Assembly (NCBI GenBank): GCA_964369515.1
Contig: CAYJHK010000001.1
Span: forward strand, 1-39,492
DNA: 39,492 nucleotides
Source: an uncultured Desulfovibrionaceae bacterium
GTDB lineage: Bacteria; Desulfobacterota; Desulfovibrionia; Desulfovibrionales; Desulfovibrionaceae
Reading direction: 5' to 3'
The notes beneath the pieces are model-generated. The model made no database searches, had not been told where the DNA came from, and saw nothing but the letters and a program-made list of their open reading frames with translations. Made by a program: the position numbers and the translations under genes. Shown one piece after another: positions 3,293 through 39,492 of the stretch. The first letter of the stretch is position 1. Each line of letters starts with the position of its first letter.

Positions 3293-4060
3293 ATGGATAT
3301 AGCAACATTAGGCGGAATGCTTGGGGGCTTTGGGCTTGTACTTGGTTCTATATTTATTGGACCTCAACCGGGCAACTTTATTGACGTTCCAAGTATAATG
3401 ATTGTTGTTGGAGGAACGCTGTCCTCCATCTTCGTTTGCTTTCCTTTCGGTGAGGTAAAGCAGGCATTTAGTGCCGGTGTTAAAGCGTTTACCGCTAAGG
3501 ATGCGCCGGTGAGTGAAGTGGTTTCTACAATGGTAAAAATCGCCGAGATCAGTCGTCGGCAAGGTATTGTGGCTCTTGAGAAAATTCAAACGACAAATCC
3601 CATTTTGAAAAAAGCCACTCAGCTCATAGCTGACAGTGCCGATCCTTCGCTTATTCACGCCACCGTTTCCATTGAAATTATGTCCATGAAAAAACGGCAT
3701 AATATCGGAATTAACGTATTTACACGCCTTGCATCCTTGGCTCCTGCCATGGGTATGGTGGGTACGCTCATCGGCCTTGTGCAAATGCTTGCCAACCTTT
3801 CGGACCCCGCAGCCATTGGACCTGCTATGGCTGTTGCTATTTTGACAACGTTTTATGGCGCACTTATTGCAAACTTGCTATTTATACCGCTTGCCGGTAA
3901 ATTAAAAGCCAGAAGTATGCAAGAAGAGTTGCTTCTAATGATTATTTTTGAAGGTGCCAAGTCAATTTTAGAAAACAACAACCCTAATCTTGTATACGAA
4001 AAGTTGTCTTCCTTCTTGCCTCCAAAAGAGCGCAAAGGGCCGGATAAGGGTGAAAAATAA
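3293..4060 (+). CDS. motA: flagellar stator protein MotA/PomA (MotA/TolQ/ExbB proton-channel family)
   Basis: 255 aa, the canonical stator size. Hydrophobic N-terminal pair and C-terminal pair of TM segments (LAPAMGMVGTLIGLVQML, ILTTFYGALIANLLFIPL). Immediately followed by motB. Confidence 0.9.
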   Translation: MDIATLGGMLGGFGLVLGSIFIGPQPGNFIDVPSIMIVVGGTLSSIFVCFPFGEVKQAFSAGVKAFTAKDAPVSEVVSTMVKIAEISRRQGIVALEKIQTTNPILKKATQLIADSADPSLIHATVSIEIMSMKKRHNIGINVFTRLASLAPAMGMVGTLIGLVQMLANLSDPAAIGPAMAVAILTTFYGALIANLLFIPLAGKLKARSMQEELLLMIIFEGAKSILENNNPNLVYEKLSSFLPPKERKGPDKGEK

Positions 4061-16107: not shown

Positions 16108-16306
16108 TTATCGGTCCATTGAAAAAATCTGTTCCAAAAAGTTTTTTAATAAAATGTTAACTTTATCGTTTTCCTACAGGTTGTTCAAAAAGTGTAAGAT
16201 ACGAGGAAGACGAAGTTTTTTTGCGTAGGGAGTGTATACAGACATACATGACCGGAGCAAAAAACGAGTCTGACGAAGTAGATTGCACTTTTTCAAAAGC
16301 CTGTTA
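16108..16306 (+). repeat. 199-bp repeat A, copy 1 (copy 2 at 39172-39370)
   Basis: Hand alignment is gapless and nearly identical. It contains an internal imperfect inverted repeat GTTCAAAAAGTGTAAGATAC / GTAGATTGCACTTTTTCAA. Confidence 0.85.
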
Positions 16307-30569: not shown

Positions 30570-32432
30570 ATGAAAAAGTTTTACAAAAATTCATCTAAAG
30601 CTACATCATTTTTCCCTTGTTTGTTATTGTTTGTCTTTGTGCAAATGCTTCCGCTTTCCGGTAGTTTTGTGGCGCACGCCAAGAACAGCGATATTGACAG
30701 CATCATCCGTGAAGCAGAAAATCGGCGTATAAAAATAACCAAGACCATGGAAGAAAGTACGGTCTTTATTTTTTATGCTGACAGTGACGGCGATGTCAGC
30801 CTTGGTACGGGCTTCGTAGTGGGCGATGGCTACATTCTCACCAATGGGCATGTGGTTGAAGGCGGCAGCAGTTTTTATGTAACAGGAAAAAGTTTTACAC
30901 CGGTAAAAGCTAAGCTTATCAAAATGATTGATAACAATGTGGATGATTTCGCAGTGTTGCAATTTACGCCTCCCGTCAAATTACCCATCTTGAGTTTTAA
31001 TCTTAATTTGAACCGCTCCGATAGGGTGAATGCGTGGGGCTTTCCCTATGCCTATACGCAATTTGATAAGAATACCGACGCCTTGCTTAGCGGAGACAGC
31101 GACGTTGTGCCGCCGGTCATTACCACAGAAGGTGTTGTCAATGCTTTCATAACGACCGATACAAAAATGAACAGCATTTTGCATTCAGCTAATATTGCCA
31201 AGGGCAACAGCGGTGGACCGCTCGTCAATAGCCGTGGACATGTGGTTGGCGTAAACACTTGGATTTCTGCGGAAGAAGGGGAGGGCTCTCACGTCAACGC
31301 CGCACTTACCGCACGGGCTGCCATTGCTTTTTTGCGCTCTGCCGGTGTGGAGCCACGCATTGAGGGCGGTGAAGATGTACCTTCGCAGCATTCGCAGCAG
31401 TTGGCAGAGAATAAGCGCAAAGGGCCTTACGCAACCAAATCCTTTGATTTAAGTGATGACGACTCCGACAGCGACTCCGGCTCTGCTCCCGGTAGCGACG
31501 GTCTTACGGGCGATGCTAAAGATATCTATCCCATGGCGGTGGAAGGCAATGCCGAAGCACAAGCATATCTTGGCCTTGCTTATTGGGAAGGTGATTCTGC
31601 CCCCAAGGACATGCAAAAATCCCTATATTGGTTTAGAAAAGCAGTTCAAAATGATGATAATAACGCCAAAGCATTGCTGGCCTTTATCTACCTCACTGAA
31701 GTTGATTTCTTAAATGTAGAGGAAGGCATGAAATTGTTAGAGCAAGCGGCTGAAAAAGATGCTGAATATGCATCCGGCTTTGCGCTTTTTTCATTTCGAG
31801 GCGAAATGTTGGGCATAGAACGTAATGTGGAAAAAGCCGTGCGTGCTGCCAAACGTGGCACAGAGGTTGGAGATACCGAAGCCATGGGTTTATTGGCTCT
31901 TCTCTATTGCACAGGCGATGGCGTGGAGGCGGACACAAAATACGCTTTTGAACTTGCGGAAAAAGCCGCCAAAGACGATGTGGGCTTGGCTTATGCTGTG
32001 TTAAGCTGGATTCATCACGATGGAGATGTGGGAGAAGCTGACTACGAAAAGGCCGTAAGTTATGCCAAAAAAGCCATTGAAGAAGATGAATCCCTTGGCA
32101 GTGCCTTGCTTGGCATGTATTATCATGATGGGCATGGTGTGGAACAAGATTATGATAAAGCCTTTAAATACGCCAGTGAGGCAGCGGAGGCTTTTGAGGA
32201 GACAGGGCAATACCTCTTGGGCTTGCTCTATGCCAACGGTGAAGGGGTGAAGAGTAATAATGTTAAGGCTTGGGCGTATTTTGACATGGCAGCTCGCAAA
32301 GACGTGAGTAATGCCGCAGAAAATCGTGACAGCGTAGCTGAGGATATGAGTGAGAAAGAAATTAAGGACGCCAAAGCATTGGTGAAACAATGGCATTCGC
32401 AGTATGGCTTGAAGTATGTGGAAAACTACTAA
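30570..32432 (+). CDS. secreted trypsin-like (chymotrypsin-fold) serine protease fused to Sel1/TPR-like repeats
   Basis: Signal peptide. Triad contexts TNGHVV, DDFAVL and GNSGGPLV. Acidic linker DLSDDDSDSDSGS. At least 6 Sel1-type repeats (AQAYLGLAYWEG..., GLLYANGEGV...). Confidence 0.88.
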   Translation: MKKFYKNSSKATSFFPCLLLFVFVQMLPLSGSFVAHAKNSDIDSIIREAENRRIKITKTMEESTVFIFYADSDGDVSLGTGFVVGDGYILTNGHVVEGGSSFYVTGKSFTPVKAKLIKMIDNNVDDFAVLQFTPPVKLPILSFNLNLNRSDRVNAWGFPYAYTQFDKNTDALLSGDSDVVPPVITTEGVVNAFITTDTKMNSILHSANIAKGNSGGPLVNSRGHVVGVNTWISAEEGEGSHVNAALTARAAIAFLRSAGVEPRIEGGEDVPSQHSQQLAENKRKGPYATKSFDLSDDDSDSDSGSAPGSDGLTGDAKDIYPMAVEGNAEAQAYLGLAYWEGDSAPKDMQKSLYWFRKAVQNDDNNAKALLAFIYLTEVDFLNVEEGMKLLEQAAEKDAEYASGFALFSFRGEMLGIERNVEKAVRAAKRGTEVGDTEAMGLLALLYCTGDGVEADTKYAFELAEKAAKDDVGLAYAVLSWIHHDGDVGEADYEKAVSYAKKAIEEDESLGSALLGMYYHDGHGVEQDYDKAFKYASEAAEAFEETGQYLLGLLYANGEGVKSNNVKAWAYFDMAARKDVSNAAENRDSVAEDMSEKEIKDAKALVKQWHSQYGLKYVENY

Positions 32433-32478
32433 GCAAAAGAGCATACGTTATTGATAAATATCATTGTTTTTCTAATAT

Positions 32479-32760
32479 AGTCGAAGCTGAAAAACATGTT
32501 AACAGTCTAAAATTAAATATTTTTTCAGTTAAAATATGTAAATAAAAATGCCGAAAACAAGGGCATGGAATGCACTTTTCCGGCATTTTTATGACGCTAA
32601 AACATGGTTTTTCTGTGACGGCTAACAAAATTTGAACGATAGTGAAAATTTTGCGCCACGTAAAATGAGCCGGAATTCACTTCCGGCGCCCCCGAAGGGG
32701 CATTTGGAGTGAGCGTGCCTTTCTGAAAAATGCATGAAAATGCGTTTTTCAGCTTCGACT
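32479..32760 (+). repeat. 282-bp structured repeat B, copy 1 (MITE-like; 17-bp terminal inverted repeats)
   Basis: Begins AGTCGAAGCTGAAAAAC and ends GTTTTTCAGCTTCGACT. Several internal hairpins. Gapless alignment to 37259-37540. Confidence 0.85.
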
Positions 32761-32762
32761 AG

Positions 32763-32843
32763 TTAGTAGTGGTTAGTGGTTAGTTGATGAGGTTGCTACG
32801 CTCAACATTTACTGCCCACTAGCCACTAATCACTACCCACTAA
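32763..32843. repeat. inverted arrays of the heptamer TTAGTGG
   Basis: Plus strand has TTAGT-AGTGG-TTAGTGG-TTAGTTG at 32763-32786. Four consecutive complements CCACTAG/CCACTAA/TCACTAC/CCACTAA lie at 32816-32843. Confidence 0.8.
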
Positions 32844-33066
32844 AAAGTTACATTTTAACACAAAATATTATATTTTGTCCGAATTTCAAATTAGAACGCC
32901 GTGTAATTTTTATGTACGAGAACATTTTGCACTTGCTTTTAAATGTACTAGAATATAAACTAAGTCTAGGAAAATGTTTGCGATAGAAAACACCAAGCTA
33001 AGTTACTACTTTTGCCACGGATTGTTAAAGCTAATATCAATTGTCTATATAAACACGGAGTAAAAT

Positions 33067-33657
33067 ATGAGCTGGGACAATTTTACCAAAAGCGTACAAA
33101 CAGGACTTTCAACAATTTCTTTCCAAACTGAAAACAAAGAGCTTATTCCAGAAGACGCATTCTTGTTTTGGCAAAATTTAGGTGAAAACACAAGAAATAA
33201 CGGGAACAATTTATTCCTGATAGGCAATGGAGCCAGTGCTGCAATGGCAAGTCATTATGCAACAGACCTTGGTAAAAATGCACTTTTAAAAACCCTCACT
33301 TTTTCAGATGCTTCTTTATTAACAGCTCTTGGAAATGATATAGATTTTTCGCATATTTTTTCTGAACCAATTTCTCGCTTGGGACATGCCGGGGATATGT
33401 TGATAACAATTTCAAGCTCAGGAAATTCACCCAATATCATTAGGGCAATAAACACCGCTCGCTCTTTGAATATGATTATTATTACACTTTCAGCTATGAA
33501 AAAAGATAATAAAAGCCGGACTCTTGGAGATTTGAACATATATGCTCCGGTACAAACATATGGGCTTGCAGAAACAATACATGCAGCAATTTTACACCAT
33601 TGGACAGACTGCATGGTTTTATCTTGGAAAAATCATTTGAAGGGTAAATCATGCTAG
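33067..33657 (+). CDS. SIS-domain sugar-phosphate isomerase, GmhA (phosphoheptose isomerase)-like
   Basis: LIGNGASAAMASHYATDLG and GNDIDFSHIFSEPISRLGHAGDMLITISSSGNSPNIIRAINTARSLNMIIITLS align well from memory with E. coli GmhA. Confidence 0.85.
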   Translation: MSWDNFTKSVQTGLSTISFQTENKELIPEDAFLFWQNLGENTRNNGNNLFLIGNGASAAMASHYATDLGKNALLKTLTFSDASLLTALGNDIDFSHIFSEPISRLGHAGDMLITISSSGNSPNIIRAINTARSLNMIIITLSAMKKDNKSRTLGDLNIYAPVQTYGLAETIHAAILHHWTDCMVLSWKNHLKGKSC

Positions 33658-35171
33658 AAGCAGATAAGAAGTATAAAAAAGAACTTGAAAAAATAGCTAA
33701 TATTATAAGTAAGCTACGTAAAGAAGGTAAGAAAATTGTTCTATGTCATGGAGTCTTTGACCTTCTGCATATAGGGCATATCCGCTATTTGCGAGCATCT
33801 AAAAAACTCGGAGATGTCCTTGTTGTTACAATGTCACCGGATCATTACGTTGATAAAGGGCCTGGGCGTCCTGCATTTTCTGAGCACTTACGCTTGGAAG
33901 CAATAGCATCTCTTGATTGCGTAGATTATGCCGCCATCAATGCTTGGGCAACAGCCGAAGAAACTTTACGCCTGCTACGCCCTGATATTTATTCAAAAGG
34001 TTCTGAATTTAAAAACTTAGAAGATGCAACAGGCAAGATTGCCCGTGAAAATAGTGTCGTAGAAGAAATAGGTGCTACAATACACTTTGTGGAAGATATT
34101 GTGTTTTCATCATCAAACCTCATCAATCAATATCTGTCACAATCTTCTGATGAATGTCGTGAATATTTACGGCAATTTAAACAACGCTACACTGACAGCC
34201 AAATTTTTCTTGAACTAAATCGCATGAAATCATTAAATGTGTTGGTGCTTGGTGATATGATTTTAGATGAGTATATTTATTGCTCAGCTCTTGGCGCATC
34301 GTCAAAAGACCCTGTTCTTGCAGTTAATTTTCAATCATCAGAAGTGTTTGCCGGTGGTTCCGCAGCAATAGCCAACCATGTAGCCCAACAAGCCGGCAGT
34401 GTTACACTTTGCTCTGTACTCGGTGATGATAATAAAGAAAATTGGATTCGTGAGCATTTAAATGAAAACATCATCTTTAAACCTTTTTTGCGCCCAAATA
34501 GTCCTACAGTCCGTAAACAACGCATTATGGACGGCTATAGCTTTCAAAAGTTGATTGAAGTTTATCATATGGAGGCTTCGCCCCTCCCCGAAGATATTGA
34601 ACAAGCTATGCAAGCTTGGATATTAGAAGACATACAAAAGTATGACCTTGTAATTGCAGCAGACTTTGGACATGGCTGCATAAGTGCAAAATTAGCAAGT
34701 TTAATCTCAGAACATGCTGAATTTTTAGCAGTAAATACACAAGCCAATGCCGGAAATCGTGGTTACCATACTATTAGCCGCTATCCAAGAGCTGACTTTA
34801 TATCTTTAGCCGGACATGAGATTACTTTGGAATATCGCAATCAAAAAATCACTACAAGTGCAATGATGACAGATTTACAACATCGCCTTTCTTGTCCAAC
34901 TGTACTTGTTACCGAAGGCAGAAAGGGTTGTGCTGTTTTGCGTGAAGATTTTACTCGTGCGCCTTCATTTGCATCTAATGTCATAGACCGCGTCGGTGCA
35001 GGCGATGCCCTTTTTTCAATTGCAGCTATGGGAGCAAGACTAGGATTTCCCATAGATTTAATGGGATTTTGCGGTAATATTGCAGGCTCTCTTGCTGTTG
35101 AAACCATTGGCAATGCCAAAGCTGTCAGTAAAAATGCTATGCTTCGCTATATAACAGCCATTTTAAAGTAG
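33651..35171 (+). CDS. bifunctional nucleotidyltransferase (cytidylyltransferase-fold, N-terminal) / PfkB-family sugar kinase (C-terminal); HldE-like with reversed domain order
   Basis: N-terminal CHGVFDLLHIGHIRYL (HxGH motif). C-terminal LVLGDMILDEYIY and DRVGAGDALFS (PfkB GAGD). Overlaps the upstream gene by 7 nt. Confidence 0.85.
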   Translation: MLEADKKYKKELEKIANIISKLRKEGKKIVLCHGVFDLLHIGHIRYLRASKKLGDVLVVTMSPDHYVDKGPGRPAFSEHLRLEAIASLDCVDYAAINAWATAEETLRLLRPDIYSKGSEFKNLEDATGKIARENSVVEEIGATIHFVEDIVFSSSNLINQYLSQSSDECREYLRQFKQRYTDSQIFLELNRMKSLNVLVLGDMILDEYIYCSALGASSKDPVLAVNFQSSEVFAGGSAAIANHVAQQAGSVTLCSVLGDDNKENWIREHLNENIIFKPFLRPNSPTVRKQRIMDGYSFQKLIEVYHMEASPLPEDIEQAMQAWILEDIQKYDLVIAADFGHGCISAKLASLISEHAEFLAVNTQANAGNRGYHTISRYPRADFISLAGHEITLEYRNQKITTSAMMTDLQHRLSCPTVLVTEGRKGCAVLREDFTRAPSFASNVIDRVGAGDALFSIAAMGARLGFPIDLMGFCGNIAGSLAVETIGNAKAVSKNAMLRYITAILK

Positions 35172-35178
35172 TATATAT

Positions 35179-36141
35179 ATGTCAAGCTATACTTTATTTG
35201 ACCGCAAGCGTTTACGTTTACTCCCATTAAAAGAGCGTAAACATGACCTACACGGAGATATTATTTCACCGTTAAATAAATGTAATGAAATAGAACCGGA
35301 ATTGCAAATCGCAGCAAAAAAACTTATTGCCGCAAAAAAAGCAAATAAAGCTCGCATTTTTCAATGCGGTGCGCATGTCATCCGCTCAGGTGTTCAAAAC
35401 TATCTTTTTGAGCTTATGGAGCAAGGTTTTATTTCCTGCCTTGTTTTTAATGGTGCTTGTGCTATTCATGATTTTGAATTTGCTCTAATCGGAGCAACAA
35501 CTGAATCCGTAGCCACATATATTAAGAATGGTCAATTTGGACTATGGAAAGAAACAGGGCGTTTAAATGATATCATAAATAGTGGCTGGAAAAATGGTCT
35601 CGGCATTGGTGAATCTGTAGCACGTGAAATTGCTAACGGAAATTATGCCTATAAACATTACAGTATTTTTGCAAAAGCTTGGGAGTGTCGCATTCCTATA
35701 ACGGTACATATTGGCATTGGACATGATATCATTCATGAACACCCAAATTGCAATGGAGAAGCTTTAGGCGGTGCAAGCTATACGGATTTTCTTATTTTTA
35801 CAAATGAGCTTGAAAAGTTAGAGCATGGTTGTGTATATACATTTGGGAGTGCAATTATGGCACCGGAAGTCTTTTTAAAAGCTTTGGCCATGGTGCGCAA
35901 TGTTGCAGAGCAAGAAGGACGCAGTATAAAGCAATTCACGTCCTTGGTTTGCGATTTGCAGAATTTACCCCAAAATATACATGAGGAAGCGAAAAAAAAT
36001 GACCCTCGTTACTATTTTCGCCCATGGAAAACATTGCTTTCACGCACAGTATCTGATGGTGGTGAAAGTTTATATGTTTGTGGTAGGCATGAACATACTA
36101 TACCGGCACTTTGGAGTGCAATACAAAGAGAATTAAATTAA
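35179..36141 (+). CDS. deoxyhypusine-synthase-like (DHS-fold) protein, function unknown
   Basis: FQCGAHVIRSGVQNYLFELMEQGFISCLVFNGACAIHDFEFALIG parallels the DHS segment L.G....G.R..I..L......D..VT..G....D...AL as I remember it from archaeal and human DHS. Confidence 0.5.
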   Translation: MSSYTLFDRKRLRLLPLKERKHDLHGDIISPLNKCNEIEPELQIAAKKLIAAKKANKARIFQCGAHVIRSGVQNYLFELMEQGFISCLVFNGACAIHDFEFALIGATTESVATYIKNGQFGLWKETGRLNDIINSGWKNGLGIGESVAREIANGNYAYKHYSIFAKAWECRIPITVHIGIGHDIIHEHPNCNGEALGGASYTDFLIFTNELEKLEHGCVYTFGSAIMAPEVFLKALAMVRNVAEQEGRSIKQFTSLVCDLQNLPQNIHEEAKKNDPRYYFRPWKTLLSRTVSDGGESLYVCGRHEHTIPALWSAIQRELN

Positions 36142-36171
36142 TGAATATTCTTATAAATTAGGGAGTTTGCT

Positions 36172-37260
36172 TTGTCCACTGATAAAACTCGTGCTGACAA
36201 GTTTCGTATAGACAGCCACAAACTTAATCTACATCCACAACGTGTAGCCGATTGGCTCAACGGGAAGATAATTGCTCCCATATATATGGAAGTGAGTCCA
36301 TCCGGTGCCTGCAATCATCGCTGTTCATTTTGTGGACTTGATTTCATGGGGTATAAGGCTAATTTTTTACCAACTGAGCTTTTTTCTGAACGCTTAGCAG
36401 AAATGGGTGAATATGGACTTAAGTCTATCATGTTTGCCGGTGAGGGCGAGCCACTTTTACATAAAAACATTATTACCCTTTCTGAAAATGCCAAAAAATC
36501 AGGCATCGATATAGCCTTTACGACCAATGCCGTTTTACTTACGCCTGAAAAATCAGAAGAATTACTGCCCATAACGAGCTGGATAAAGGTTAGCTGCAAT
36601 GCCGGCACAAAAGAAAGTTATGCCAAAATTCATGGAACAAATTCTTCTGATTTTGATAAAGTATTAGCTAATATTGAGCAAGCTGTAATTATTCGCAAAA
36701 AACAAAATAGTTCTTGTACTATTGGTATGCAAATGATTTTACTGCCTGAAAACAGAGATTCAGCATTTCAATTTGCACAAAAAATCCGTGGGCTTGGAGT
36801 TGACTATTTAGTTATTAAACCATATTCGCAACATCCGCAAGGTATTTCAAATAATTATGAAAATGTTTGTTATTCAGATTGCGATATACTAGCGCAACAA
36901 CTTGAATCATTAAATACAAATACTTTTAAATGTATTTTTCGTTATGAAACTATGCACCGTCAAGCTATTGGAAAAAAAGCATATAACCGTTGCCAAGCTT
37001 TACCTTTTTGGAGCTATATTGACGCTAAAGGAAATGTTTGGGGTTGCAGTGTTTTTTTAAGCGATGAGAGATTTATATATGGCAATATAAATCGACAAAA
37101 TTTTAAAGAAATTTGGGAAAGTAATGTGCGCAAAAGACATCTTGAATGGATTGCCAACTCCTTTGACGCTTCAAATTGTCGCATAAATTGTCGCATGGAC
37201 GCCATAAATGCTTATCTTTGGGAATTGACCCACCCTAATGCCCATGTAAATTTTATTTAG
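36172..37260 (+). CDS. radical SAM enzyme with C-terminal SPASM/Twitch-like Cys motif
   Basis: CNHRCSFCG (Cx3Cx2C) at 36310-36333. GEGEPLL. C-terminal RCQ...GNVWGCS...YGNI...FKEIW...NCRINCR. TTG start with GGGAG upstream. Confidence 0.85.
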   Translation: MSTDKTRADKFRIDSHKLNLHPQRVADWLNGKIIAPIYMEVSPSGACNHRCSFCGLDFMGYKANFLPTELFSERLAEMGEYGLKSIMFAGEGEPLLHKNIITLSENAKKSGIDIAFTTNAVLLTPEKSEELLPITSWIKVSCNAGTKESYAKIHGTNSSDFDKVLANIEQAVIIRKKQNSSCTIGMQMILLPENRDSAFQFAQKIRGLGVDYLVIKPYSQHPQGISNNYENVCYSDCDILAQQLESLNTNTFKCIFRYETMHRQAIGKKAYNRCQALPFWSYIDAKGNVWGCSVFLSDERFIYGNINRQNFKEIWESNVRKRHLEWIANSFDASNCRINCRMDAINAYLWELTHPNAHVNFI

Positions 37261-37540
37261 TCGCCACTGAAAAACATGATAACAAACTTAAATTAAACAA
37301 CTTTTTAGTTAAAATGCGCAAATAAAAATGCAGGAAACAAGGGTGCGAAGTGCACTTTTCCGGCATTTTTATGAAGCTTAAACATGATTTTTCAGTGACG
37401 ATTAACAAAATTTGAGCGTAAGCGAAAATTTTGCGCCACGTAAAATGAGCCGCAATTCACTTGCGGCGTCCCCGAAGGGGCATTTGGAGTGAGCGTGCCT
37501 TTCTGAAAAATGCATGAAAATGCGTTTTTCAGCTTCGACT
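37259..37540 (+). repeat. 282-bp structured repeat B, copy 2
   Basis: By my hand count, 34 mismatches and no gaps versus copy 1 (about 88 percent identity). The right-hand ~110 nt are almost identical. Its first bases overlap the stop codon of the radical SAM gene. Confidence 0.85.
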
Positions 37541-37573
37541 ATTTGAGACAATTTTAATTTGTAGCGTGATGTA

Positions 37574-39157
37574 ATGCCAAACTTTATTTTAGGTATAGAT
37601 TTAGATAATACTCTTATTAATTATAATCAACTTTTTTATAACCTTGCAGTAGAAAGTGAACTTATTGATCTTAATACCCCTGCTAATAAAACAGCAGTGA
37701 GGAATAGGGTACGCAAACTCTATACAGATGCTGAATGGCAAAAATTACAGTGGTATGCTTATGGTAGCTATTTGCACAAAGCATCTTTATTTCCATTTGT
37801 CAGAGATGCTCTAAAATGGCTTACTGAAAGTAATATAAAATTATATATCATTAGCCATAAAACTGAATACGCTGATATTGATAAAGAAAAAACTGTCAGT
37901 TTAAGAGAAAGTGCTTTGAACTTTTTAGAAGAACAGGGGATTTTCTCATTTATACCAAGTGAAAATGTTATCTTTTGTAATAGCATGACTGAAAAATGTG
38001 CTGCTATAGCAAGAGTAAATTGCACCGATTTCATAGATGATTTACCAGAATTTTTAGGACATGATGCCTTTCCAAACTCAGTGCATAAAATTATGTTTTG
38101 CCCGCAAGGCATAGAGTTTCCAAACGTTCATAATTGTTCAATATTACGTAGTTTTAATGCTTTATCGCTTTTCTTTACACCACAAAAAGAAAAAACTCGC
38201 ATTCATGGTGGCAGAAATAGCCGAGTATGGCATTGGCAATCACCTATTGGAGCTGTCGCAATAAAAGATATTTGCTGTGTAGCAGATGACCCTAGGCAAC
38301 GTGATGCCGCAGAGTGGCGTGCATGGTGTTTCTTAGAAGAATACGGGCTAAATAAGCAACCTACTGCATTAATGAGAGATGTTCGATATGAACAGATTAT
38401 TTCAACTTGGATAAATGGTGCAGCAATTAAAACAATTGAAAATAATGACATTGAACAATTATCAGATTTTTTCAAAGAACTTTACGAATTAAGAGAATTC
38501 GCACAGGTATTGCCACCCGCCGCTGATGCTTGTTTTAATTTACGAGCACTGGACATACATATTCAAGAACGTATTGACCGCCTGCTAAACGCTAAACGAG
38601 AACAAAGGTTTGAGCTTGAATATAATAAGCTTAGTGCTTTTTTAAAATGGGAACTTATCCCCATTTATGAAGAGAGCATTAAGCTCAGTTATAAGGCTTA
38701 TGCAGAAAATAACATACTTGTGGATATGGCACTGTCTTCTGAATTATGTATGCCAAGCCCTTCTGATTTTGGTTTGCACAATGCTTTAAGAACAAATGCA
38801 GGCTTAAAATTTATTGATTTCGAATACTTTGGAAAAGATGACCCTGTGAAGTTGATTTGTGATACTATATTACACCCGGCACTGCCCATGACTGAAGCAG
38901 AAAGACAAGATTTCTTTAATATGGTTTGTGAAAAATGCCAGTTCATTGAAATAGATAAAAACTTTATGGTACGCTTTAAATCCCACTTTCCTTTATGGAA
39001 AATTAAATGGGCGTGCATAATTTTGAATGAGTTTTTAAAATCAGGCCAAAAAAGAAGAATAATTGCCAATGAAAGTGAAGTAATTTCATCTGAAATTTTG
39101 CAATTACAACTACAAAAAGCTGAGCAAATGTTACAAAAAAATATGCCATGTTTGTAA
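37574..39157 (+). CDS. fusion of a HAD-like phosphatase domain (N-terminal) and an APH/choline-kinase-fold phosphotransferase domain (C-terminal)
   Basis: HAD motif I ILGIDLDNTL, motif II IISHKT, acidic motif FIDDLPE. Kinase-fold motifs GGRNSRVW...AIKD and PSDFGLHNAL...FIDFEYFGKDDP. Confidence 0.75.
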   Translation: MPNFILGIDLDNTLINYNQLFYNLAVESELIDLNTPANKTAVRNRVRKLYTDAEWQKLQWYAYGSYLHKASLFPFVRDALKWLTESNIKLYIISHKTEYADIDKEKTVSLRESALNFLEEQGIFSFIPSENVIFCNSMTEKCAAIARVNCTDFIDDLPEFLGHDAFPNSVHKIMFCPQGIEFPNVHNCSILRSFNALSLFFTPQKEKTRIHGGRNSRVWHWQSPIGAVAIKDICCVADDPRQRDAAEWRAWCFLEEYGLNKQPTALMRDVRYEQIISTWINGAAIKTIENNDIEQLSDFFKELYELREFAQVLPPAADACFNLRALDIHIQERIDRLLNAKREQRFELEYNKLSAFLKWELIPIYEESIKLSYKAYAENNILVDMALSSELCMPSPSDFGLHNALRTNAGLKFIDFEYFGKDDPVKLICDTILHPALPMTEAERQDFFNMVCEKCQFIEIDKNFMVRFKSHFPLWKIKWACIILNEFLKSGQKRRIIANESEVISSEILQLQLQKAEQMLQKNMPCL

Positions 39158-39171
39158 TTTAATCATTGCGC

Positions 39172-39370
39172 TTATCAGTCCGTTGAAAAAATCTGTTCCA
39201 AAAAGTTTTTTAATAAAATGTTAACTTTATCGTTTTCCTACAGGTTGTTCAAAAAGTGTAAGATACGAGGAAGACGAAGTTTTTTTGCGTAGGGAGTGTA
39301 TACAGACATACATGACCGGAGCAAAAAACGAGTCTGACGAAGTAGATTGCACTTTTTCAACAGCCTGCTA
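39172..39370 (+). repeat. 199-bp repeat A, copy 2
   Basis: Near-identical to 16108-16306 in the same orientation. In both places it lies just 3' of a plus-strand gene. Confidence 0.85.
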
Positions 39371-39467
39371 GGTGACAAGTCCTTCCATTCCGCTTCCTTA
39401 ACCCTTTCCTCTTCCTTCTTCACATTAGTCAGAACAAGCACGTGATTCTAATTTTGTAAAAATTTTC

Positions 39468-39492
39468 TTGGGGGAGGGACCTTTTTGGAAAA
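39468..39492. repeat. left arm of a G/C-clamped hairpin, truncated by the window edge
   Basis: CTTGGGGGAGGGACCTTTTTGGAAAA is the reverse complement of the right arm and flank seen at 37-62. Confidence 0.5.

Follow-up and report, generated by a model that had tools for sequence, protein, structure and literature searches.

What are the two direct copies of a structured repeat that enclose a block of four genes in the DNA of an uncultured Desulfovibrionaceae bacterium, and do they have anything to do with the movement of that block? The copies lie at positions 32479–32760 and 37259–37540 of the 39,492-bp stretch that was analysed as a whole (henceforth the window), and an initial annotation, made from its letters alone, had drawn attention to their terminal inverted repeats, to a compensatory substitution in one of their stems and to the possibility that they excise or duplicate the genes between them or act as transcribed structures. 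The analyses described below make it very probable that the repeat is a non-coding mobile element of 280 bp (a MITE) whose structure is conserved.

The two copies and their ends

A repeat finder together with a base-by-base comparison aligned the two copies without gaps and with exactly 34 mismatches (88% identity), the number originally counted, and the described concentration of the differences in the left half is indeed pronounced, 31 of the 34 lying left of position 32644 and the last 71 nt being identical. Likewise present are the perfect 17-bp termini of copy 1 (AGTCGAAGCTGAAAAAC and GTTTTTCAGCTTCGACT), the double change in the hairpin at 32669–32687 (GCCGGAA-ttcac-TTCCGGC in copy 1 and GCCGCAA-ttcac-TTGCGGC in copy 2, with the changes at 32673 and 32683), the neighbouring replacement of C32689 by T in copy 2, which gives a T·G pair, and the complementarity of the left end of copy 2, GTCGCCACTGAAAAA, to an internal TTTTTCAGTGACGAT at 37388–37402. 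This last arrangement, with the left end complementing an internal repeat, is the norm in the family to which the two copies belong; it is copy 1, with its perfect termini, that departs from it. The repeat is far beyond chance, because its terminal motif, with up to three mismatches, occurs six times in the window versus 0.09 expected and because both copies fold beyond shuffled sequences on either strand (z = −6.6 to −7.5).

The family comparison also refines the coordinates. The true ends are GTCG...CGAC, and the long form of the element thus occupies, as a 280-bp core on the + strand, positions 32480–32759 (copy 1) and 37260–37539 (copy 2), the outermost A/T of the 282-bp repeat being part of a flanking duplication that begins with TA. 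The left end of copy 2 is near the family consensus. That of copy 1 is atypical: it is an exact reverse complement of the same copy’s right end and bears the right-end variant AAG where TCA is usual, and it may have originated by conversion between the element’s own arms or by recombination with an inverted copy.

A family confined to a narrow clade

We scanned one genome per species (185,579 species, 596 Gb) with an 18-mer from the right end of the element and obtained 31 loci, approximately 18 of which belong to four uncultured Desulfovibrionaceae MAGs of ERP123703. The other 13 or so are chance matches (about 17 are expected for an 18-mer in 596 Gb), with no further element sequence around them. 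Full, partial and short copies were confirmed with nhmmer and a covariance model, and a fifth, more distant MAG (CAYJNA01, locus L070) contributes a full copy that is only about 63–65% identical. The dispersed copies thus occupy at least 20 loci in five MAGs and the window, every one of them between ORFs. Besides full copies, this wider collection, which the initial annotation had recommended, includes shortened, truncated and chimeric ones, and the related uncultured Desulfovibrionaceae MAGs represented in it number at least five. A local segmental duplication as the origin of the two copies in the window was rejected, given the copies in other genomes. Many of the true matches lie within ~50 nt of a contig end, since a multi-copy repeat breaks short-read assembly; in the MAG CAYJJP01 alone, at least 11 contigs end in the element or carry it.

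The 18-mer scan found no family member elsewhere among the 185,579 species genomes. A conserved internal 26-mer had 0 matches in JGI metagenome contigs, where the 33 matches to the 18-mer end were all due to chance and included no family member; a query of the PLSDB plasmids with the element gave no match. Nor did a covariance model of the right-hand part of the element (module B, described below) find extra copies when run against the window and 155 kb of related DNA. Owing to this absence from other genomes, JGI metagenomes and PLSDB, the family seems confined to a narrow clade of uncultured Desulfovibrionaceae.

Within this clade, copy 1 is closer to a copy from a different species, situated at a non-orthologous site (L020, 1612–1891; 95% identity), than to copy 2, its neighbour in the same genome (88%). 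The window, which stems from a related species, is syntenic with CAYJJP01 over the genes for ThiG, ThiH, a PAS histidine kinase and a Sel1/trypsin protease, with a protein identity of 68–92% and a nucleotide identity of 72–79%, and the syntenic coding DNA of the species harbouring L020 is only 72–79% identical to the window, with a nucleotide identity of about 78% for that genome. The 95% identity of the two copies despite this level of divergence between the genomes points to recent movement or exchange of the family. If so, a living transposase should exist in the clade.

Modular anatomy of the element

The usual left end of the family is GTCGTCACTGAAAAA and the usual right end TTTTTCAGCTTCGAC, with an end consensus GTCG(T/A)(C/A)(A/G)CTGAAAAA; matching positions number 12 of 15 in most copies and 17 of 17 in copy 1. 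The left terminal inverted repeat of copy 1, GTCGAAGCTGAAAAA, lies at 32480–32494 on the + strand (37260–37274 in copy 2), and the right one, in − orientation and reading GTTTTTCAGCTTCGAC on the + strand, at 32744–32759 (37524–37539 in copy 2).

Two modules can be distinguished between these ends. Module A, the first 141–147 nt, is closed by an internal inverted repeat exactly complementary to the usual left end (32608–32622, − strand; 37388–37402 in copy 2), and the same sequence forms the right end of a 141-bp short form at locus L026. It has inverted repeats of its own and one long hairpin, AAAAATGCCG...CGGCATTTTT with the inner stem GCAT-gga-ATGC (32542–32592, + strand; 37322–37372 in copy 2), which is terminator-like and, because T-runs follow it on both strands, resembles a bidirectional terminator. 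Module A alone makes up the short form, represented by L026 and by positions 3659–3800 of L002.

Module B is the remaining ~135 nt, including the right end, and its parts are all given here on the + strand. It opens with a hairpin of the form CAAAATTT..AC-GNNA-GT..AAAATTTTG (32626–32653; 37406–37433 in copy 2), which is followed by a three-way junction (32654–32715; 37434–37495) with the closing stems GCGCCAC/GTG.GCGTGC and AAAAUG/CAUUU and two hairpins inside, one at 32669–32687, the site of the compensatory change already mentioned, and one at 32690–32700. The last hairpin, CTGAAAAATGCAT-GAAA-ATGCGTTTTTCAG, has 13 bp and overlaps the right terminal repeat (32723–32752; 37503–37532). The most conserved block of the whole element, the 23-nt ATTTGGAGTGAGCGTGCCTTTCT (32702–32724; 37482–37504), also belongs to this module; it is invariant in all full copies, including the divergent one at L070, and better conserved than the terminal repeats.

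The core sizes of the variants range from 52 to 289 bp. The long hairpin of module A is deleted in L028, and L007 is a mini form whose 52-bp core extends scarcely beyond the two terminal repeats. L004 and L021 are chimeric fragments, the former with a module B that lacks its right terminal repeat. A further variant of ~290 bp (L002, 84–370) combines the terminal repeats of the family with an unrelated cargo that includes GGGGGAG...CTCCCC hairpins, and one transposase apparently services several kinds of cargo. At L026 and at L031, head-to-tail neighbouring copies lie exactly 6 bp apart and share one 6-bp duplication.

The element has no coding capacity: no ORF of more than 55 aa overlaps it, and none is conserved. 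The reading as a gene for a small protein was rejected on these grounds, and the reading as an integron attC site was likewise discarded, the copies being dispersed and not present as one per cassette. Searching the whole window against Rfam 15 at gathering thresholds gave 0 matches. A permissive scan of positions 32300–33100 placed only AaHKsRNA69, PhotoRC-I and rli49 on the element, all far below their gathering scores, and its other matches fell in the flanks and in a neighbouring hairpin.

Flanking duplications and the insertion of copy 2

Once the ends are placed at GTCG...CGAC, exact direct duplications of 6–7 bp, all beginning with TA, become apparent around five copies, namely those at L031 (TAGCTA), L028 (TAAATA), L026 (the short form, TAAATA), L002 (TACAAA) and L070 (TAAGATA). 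The copy at L020 is preceded by TAAATA; on its right side, only TAA remains before the end of the contig. In copy 2 of the window and in one copy with the other cargo the duplication matches at 5 of 6 positions, and copy 1 is without one (AATATA versus TAGTTA). The target-site duplications for which the initial annotation had suggested comparing strains are thus exact in five copies, slightly imperfect in copy 2 and missing from copy 1. As an empty site for copy 1 we considered the orthologous locus of CAYJJP01 (L032), which is too diverged and broken in another repeat.

The footprint of copy 2 is particularly telling. Its left target duplication, TATTTA (37254–37259, + strand), forms together with the element’s first G the TAG stop codon of the upstream radical-SAM gene, whose ORF ends ...AAT TTT ATT TAG; the right duplicate, TATTTG, occupies 37540–37545 on the same strand. 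When the element and one duplicate are removed from the sequence, the reading becomes ...AAT TTT ATT TGA, i.e. NFI followed by a stop. The C-terminus of the radical-SAM homologues is NFI in all ten that were aligned, and the homologous genes end ATT TAA or ATT TGA. Because excision in silico restores the NFI-TGA ending common to the homologues, we infer that copy 2 inserted onto the stop codon of the radical-SAM gene, and the G-to-A difference in its left duplicate recreates a stop (TAG) at the original position.

The genes between the two copies encode a GmhA-like SIS isomerase, an HldE-like kinase/nucleotidyltransferase, a GSU2086-family protein and a radical-SAM/SPASM enzyme. According to the initial annotation, the copies bracket exactly these four genes and might move them. 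Such a composite unit, with the two direct copies as the ends that moved the block or will delete or duplicate it by homologous recombination, could be seen in direct, 88%-identical repeats 4.8 kb apart, in the beginning of a low-GC region near copy 1, and in the lack of a close radical-SAM homologue in the MAGs of the closest relatives (the best matches are 61% identical and come from other taxa). The block, however, does not end where the second copy lies. In Maridesulfovibrio (L034) and in another genome (L035) the equivalent genes are followed by two genes of 208–217 aa and 343–354 aa, and the 527-aa gene beyond copy 2 (37574–39157) is homologous to both of these genes that follow the radical-SAM gene, with the order kept. 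The low-GC stretch (33–39% versus 41–50% upstream) also runs past copy 2, from ~32.5 kb to at least 39.0 kb. From this continuation of the gene cluster and the low-GC island we conclude that the bracketing is coincidental, and the claim concerning the four-gene block is not supported. Further points against a composite unit are the 6-bp duplication that copy 2 has of its own on the stop codon, which makes it a separate insertion, the direct and not inverted orientation of the copies, and their outer flanks, AATATA and TATTTG, which share no duplication. Homologous recombination between the copies is physically possible, but a divergence of 12% with only 71 identical bases makes them a modest substrate, and nothing suggests a unit defined by recombination; we thus consider the composite unit very improbable.

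The cluster itself (33067–39157) consists of the SIS, HldE-like, GSU2086-family and radical-SAM/SPASM genes together with the 527-aa gene, which represents a fusion of a HAD-like and an APH-like kinase part. The gene set is conserved in Maridesulfovibrio and other genomes, where the fused gene is unfused and split transketolase and methyltransferase genes follow. To judge by these annotations, the cluster resembles a pathway to a modified nucleotide sugar of the heptose type.

Conserved pairing and its possible meaning

RNAalifold applied to five full copies predicts ten helices. In one of them the left end pairs with the internal repeat, a second is a weak AT stem, and the others make up module A’s long hairpin and its inner stem, the hairpin with the GNNA loop, the three-way junction with the two hairpins noted in the initial annotation, and the 13-bp hairpin with the GAAA loop. 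We then counted pairs on an alignment of 13 copies made with MAFFT and without regard to the structure. Standard pairs fill 88.7% of the cells, compared with 35–46% when the partner is slid by 1–3 columns and 84.0 ± 0.5% in shuffles, and 22 of the 95 predicted pairs have changed on both sides, compared with 5–9 in the slid versions and 10.9 ± 2.3 in shuffles (0 of 500 shuffles reach 22); with ~13 informative copies, several of them closely related, the covariation counts represent non-independent events. The figures are similar when the divergent L070 copy is left out. The compensatory change first noticed in a single stem thus generalizes to the family, with changes on both sides in every local helix, and the description as a structured repeat with terminal inverted repeats is borne out by hairpins conserved among copies that share the ends GTCG...CGAC.

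Individual stems illustrate this well. In the hairpin at 32669–32687 the fourth and fifth pairs are variable, the fifth being G-C, C-G or U-A and the fourth G-C or A-U among the copies. The pair beside the GNNA loop of the hairpin at 32626–32653 is A-U in three copies and G-C in three. In the last hairpin (32723–32752) both sides of five pairs have changed, L070 on its own accounting for three, and the variants of this hairpin are G·T wobbles on the + strand. Over the whole alignment, G·T cells number 44 versus 22 for A·C, the A·C cells in the local hairpins coming mostly from two degenerate copies; the count is biased, G·U pairs having been permitted when the + strand was folded, and several of the wobbles go back to shared ancestry. 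The excess of G·T moderately supports the + strand as the one that folds, in keeping with the earlier wobble argument for this strand. The orientation of the element to neighbouring genes is mixed (~11 copies co-oriented, 6 opposed) and therefore gives no orientation signal for a role of the RNA.

These observations fit hairpins that are kept by selection, most likely on the + strand in single-stranded form, i.e. as RNA. The RNA of the element would arise by read-through from neighbouring genes, and elements of this sort usually serve as terminators, stabilisers or RNase sites, which may also be the role of the hairpins here.

Conservation at the level of DNA would be a different explanation: the hairpins might matter in single-stranded or cruciform DNA during transposition or replication or as sites for host proteins, or the paired changes might be a mechanical product of templated repair, one arm of a quasi-palindrome being copied from the other, and not of selection on RNA. 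Neither strand folds better than the other (z = −7.5 and −7.3), no mismatch destabilises DNA less than G·T, and the orientation relative to genes is mixed. GNA and GNNA loops closed by C-G are very stable in DNA as well. Elements with terminal repeats and duplications of 6–7 bp nevertheless move as double-stranded DNA, for which internal hairpins are unneeded, and the series of A-T to G-C and of G-C to C-G to U-A across the genomes fit selection as well as they fit templated repair. We hold this explanation to be unlikely.

Alternatively, module B or the entire element might be a structured non-coding RNA with a function and only incidental mobility, such as a regulatory small RNA, a terminator recruited by the host or an RNA partner or cofactor of the transposase. 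The invariant 23-nt block and the three-way junction would then be the functional core, with the terminal repeats serving only as a vehicle, and the conservation would reflect the function of the RNA and not the mere tolerance of a selfish element. The covariation in every local helix, the bias of the wobbles to the + strand, the GNNA type of the loops and the occurrence in L004 of a module B that lacks its right terminal repeat all agree with such an RNA. So does the fact that ATTTGGAGTGAGCGTGCCTTTCT is 100% conserved, above the level of the terminal repeats, in a copy otherwise so divergent; under a pure ‘selfish MITE’ model, the best-conserved block would not be expected outside a terminal repeat. 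Yet the element corresponds to no Rfam family, scans with promoter and terminator consensus sequences, uninformative as these are, detected no conserved promoter, no protein gene is consistently associated with the copies and their orientation to neighbours is mixed. The short form, moreover, has a perfect duplication without module B, and stable hairpins in transcripts are a general property of MITEs (PMC10969869). A mobile functional RNA therefore appears quite unlikely to us, and we retain the reading as a MITE with conserved structure.

Relationship to known MITEs and related repeats

MITEs are defined by a size of ~50–800 bp and the lack of coding capacity (PMC11602168), and their transcripts typically contain stable stem-loops (PMC10969869). 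The element agrees with the published features of prokaryotic MITEs on every structural criterion (PMC10969869, PMC11602168). Besides the 280-bp core with its longest, unconserved ORF of 55 aa, it exhibits terminal inverted repeats of ~15 bp, where at least 10–15 bp are expected, duplications of 6–7 bp, within the 2–10 bp characteristic of MITE target sites, and many dispersed copies at intergenic, AT-rich sites; an insertion event is reconstructed from the sequence by the removal of copy 2, which restores NFI-TGA. The initial annotation had set an ordinary non-autonomous transposon, with many copies, classic target-site duplications and no covariation, against its own interpretation of the repeat. 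The copy number and the duplications are those of such a transposon, but covariation is present too. We are thus dealing with a MITE that is modular and structured; the family is new, its kind ordinary.

Mobilisation would putatively occur in trans, by a cut-and-paste transposase, presumably of the DDE type, that recognises the ~15-bp terminal inverted repeats and makes a staggered cut of 6–7 bp at AT-rich targets beginning with TA. To be set against this, no autonomous insertion sequence with the element’s ends, and no pair of such ends around a transposase gene, was found in 155 kb of related DNA, which derives from fragmented MAGs; the window, too, contains no transposase gene.

In the way it works, the element is most similar to Correia, BOX/SPRITE and ERIC, and it is a member of none of them, since its ends, duplication length and host differ. 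With the Correia elements of Neisseria (CREE/NEMIS) it shares the small, non-coding, intergenic nature, the terminal inverted repeats, the many copies per genome, the coexistence of a long and a short form, distinguished by an internal segment, and the TA at the insertion site (PMC10969869, PMC3184786). Correia transcripts fold into hairpins that affect expression, and the parent transposase of these elements is not known (PMC10969869, PMC3184786). The duplication is TA only in Correia elements and 6–7 bp beginning with TA here, the terminal repeats are unrelated, the hosts are Neisseria and Desulfovibrionaceae, respectively, and the present element is longer (280 bp) and has a multi-hairpin module with a three-way junction. 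The hallmarks of CREE are the 26-bp Correia terminal repeats, the TA duplication and the Neisseria host. Membership in this family was accordingly rejected in view of the ends GTCG...CTGAAAAA, the duplication of 6–7 bp and the Desulfovibrionaceae host.

The pneumococcal BOX, RUP and SPRITE repeats resemble the element in their modular build (boxA-B-C), in the terminator-like hairpins (SPRITE) and in the tendency to cluster and nest beside other repeat families, and they are transcribed within neighbouring mRNAs (PMC3049150, PMC10969869). BOX, however, lacks the classical terminal repeats and duplications, both of which are found here, and there is no sequence similarity. The likeness to ERIC/IRU and YPAL of Enterobacteria consists in imperfect palindromes, a location in intergenic regions that are (here putatively) transcribed and conserved RNA folding, and ERIC can alter mRNA stability via an RNase E site exposed by the fold (PMC10969869). 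ERIC is nevertheless a single long hairpin of ~127 bp, whereas the element comprises several independent hairpins with clear flanking duplications.

Palindromic elements derived from IS200/IS605, including REP/REPIN, were ruled out by the terminal inverted repeats and the duplications of 6–7 bp, and the window contains no Y1 transposase. Those elements have subterminal hairpins in place of terminal inverted repeats, make no duplication, use a fixed tetra- or pentanucleotide target and depend on TnpA(Y1) or RAYT as a partner. Duplications of 6–7 bp are known from few groups of insertion sequences (ISfinder), such as IS481 and ISNCY/ISDol1. The likeness of the element to IS481 and the ISDol1 group as candidate parents consists in the duplication length only; IS481-type ends begin with TGT, which the GTCG of the element does not match. 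A survey of the literature on MITEs of Desulfovibrio and on ISDol1 yielded nothing useful in this respect.

Consequences for the locus and neighbouring repeats

The element accounts for assembly breaks in this clade of uncultured Desulfovibrionaceae, many contigs of which end inside it, and it offers a marker for strain typing and for recent rearrangements. It also calls for caution in gene annotation, as part of the radical-SAM stop codon comes from a mobile element. Since copy 2 lies inside a conserved nucleotide-sugar / radical-SAM cluster and brings a hairpin of terminator type with it, the 527-aa gene downstream may be uncoupled from the four genes upstream.

Several other repeats occur in the vicinity. 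A second, unrelated direct repeat of 199 nt is found at 16108–16306 and 39172–39370, with 98% identity and both copies intergenic; it has TTGAAAAA / TTTTTCAA near its ends and no match in the related loci that were compared, and by its sequence it is probably another small mobile repeat. Directly to the right of copy 1, positions 32762–32845 form a long imperfect hairpin of TAGTGGT-like heptamers against CCACTA-like units (z = −5.0). A relative of this hairpin occurs in L022 (7737–7880), ~30–170 nt past the right end of the element, and it seems to be a third type of repeat, situated beside the MITE. Finally, the window is a whole contig, and it starts (37–89) and ends (39450–39492) in inverted copies of a motif of the type GGGGGAGGG...CTTTTTGG; similar sequences lie at the contig ends of L032 (7490–7544) and L021 (6600–6633), representing another repeat that breaks the assembly.
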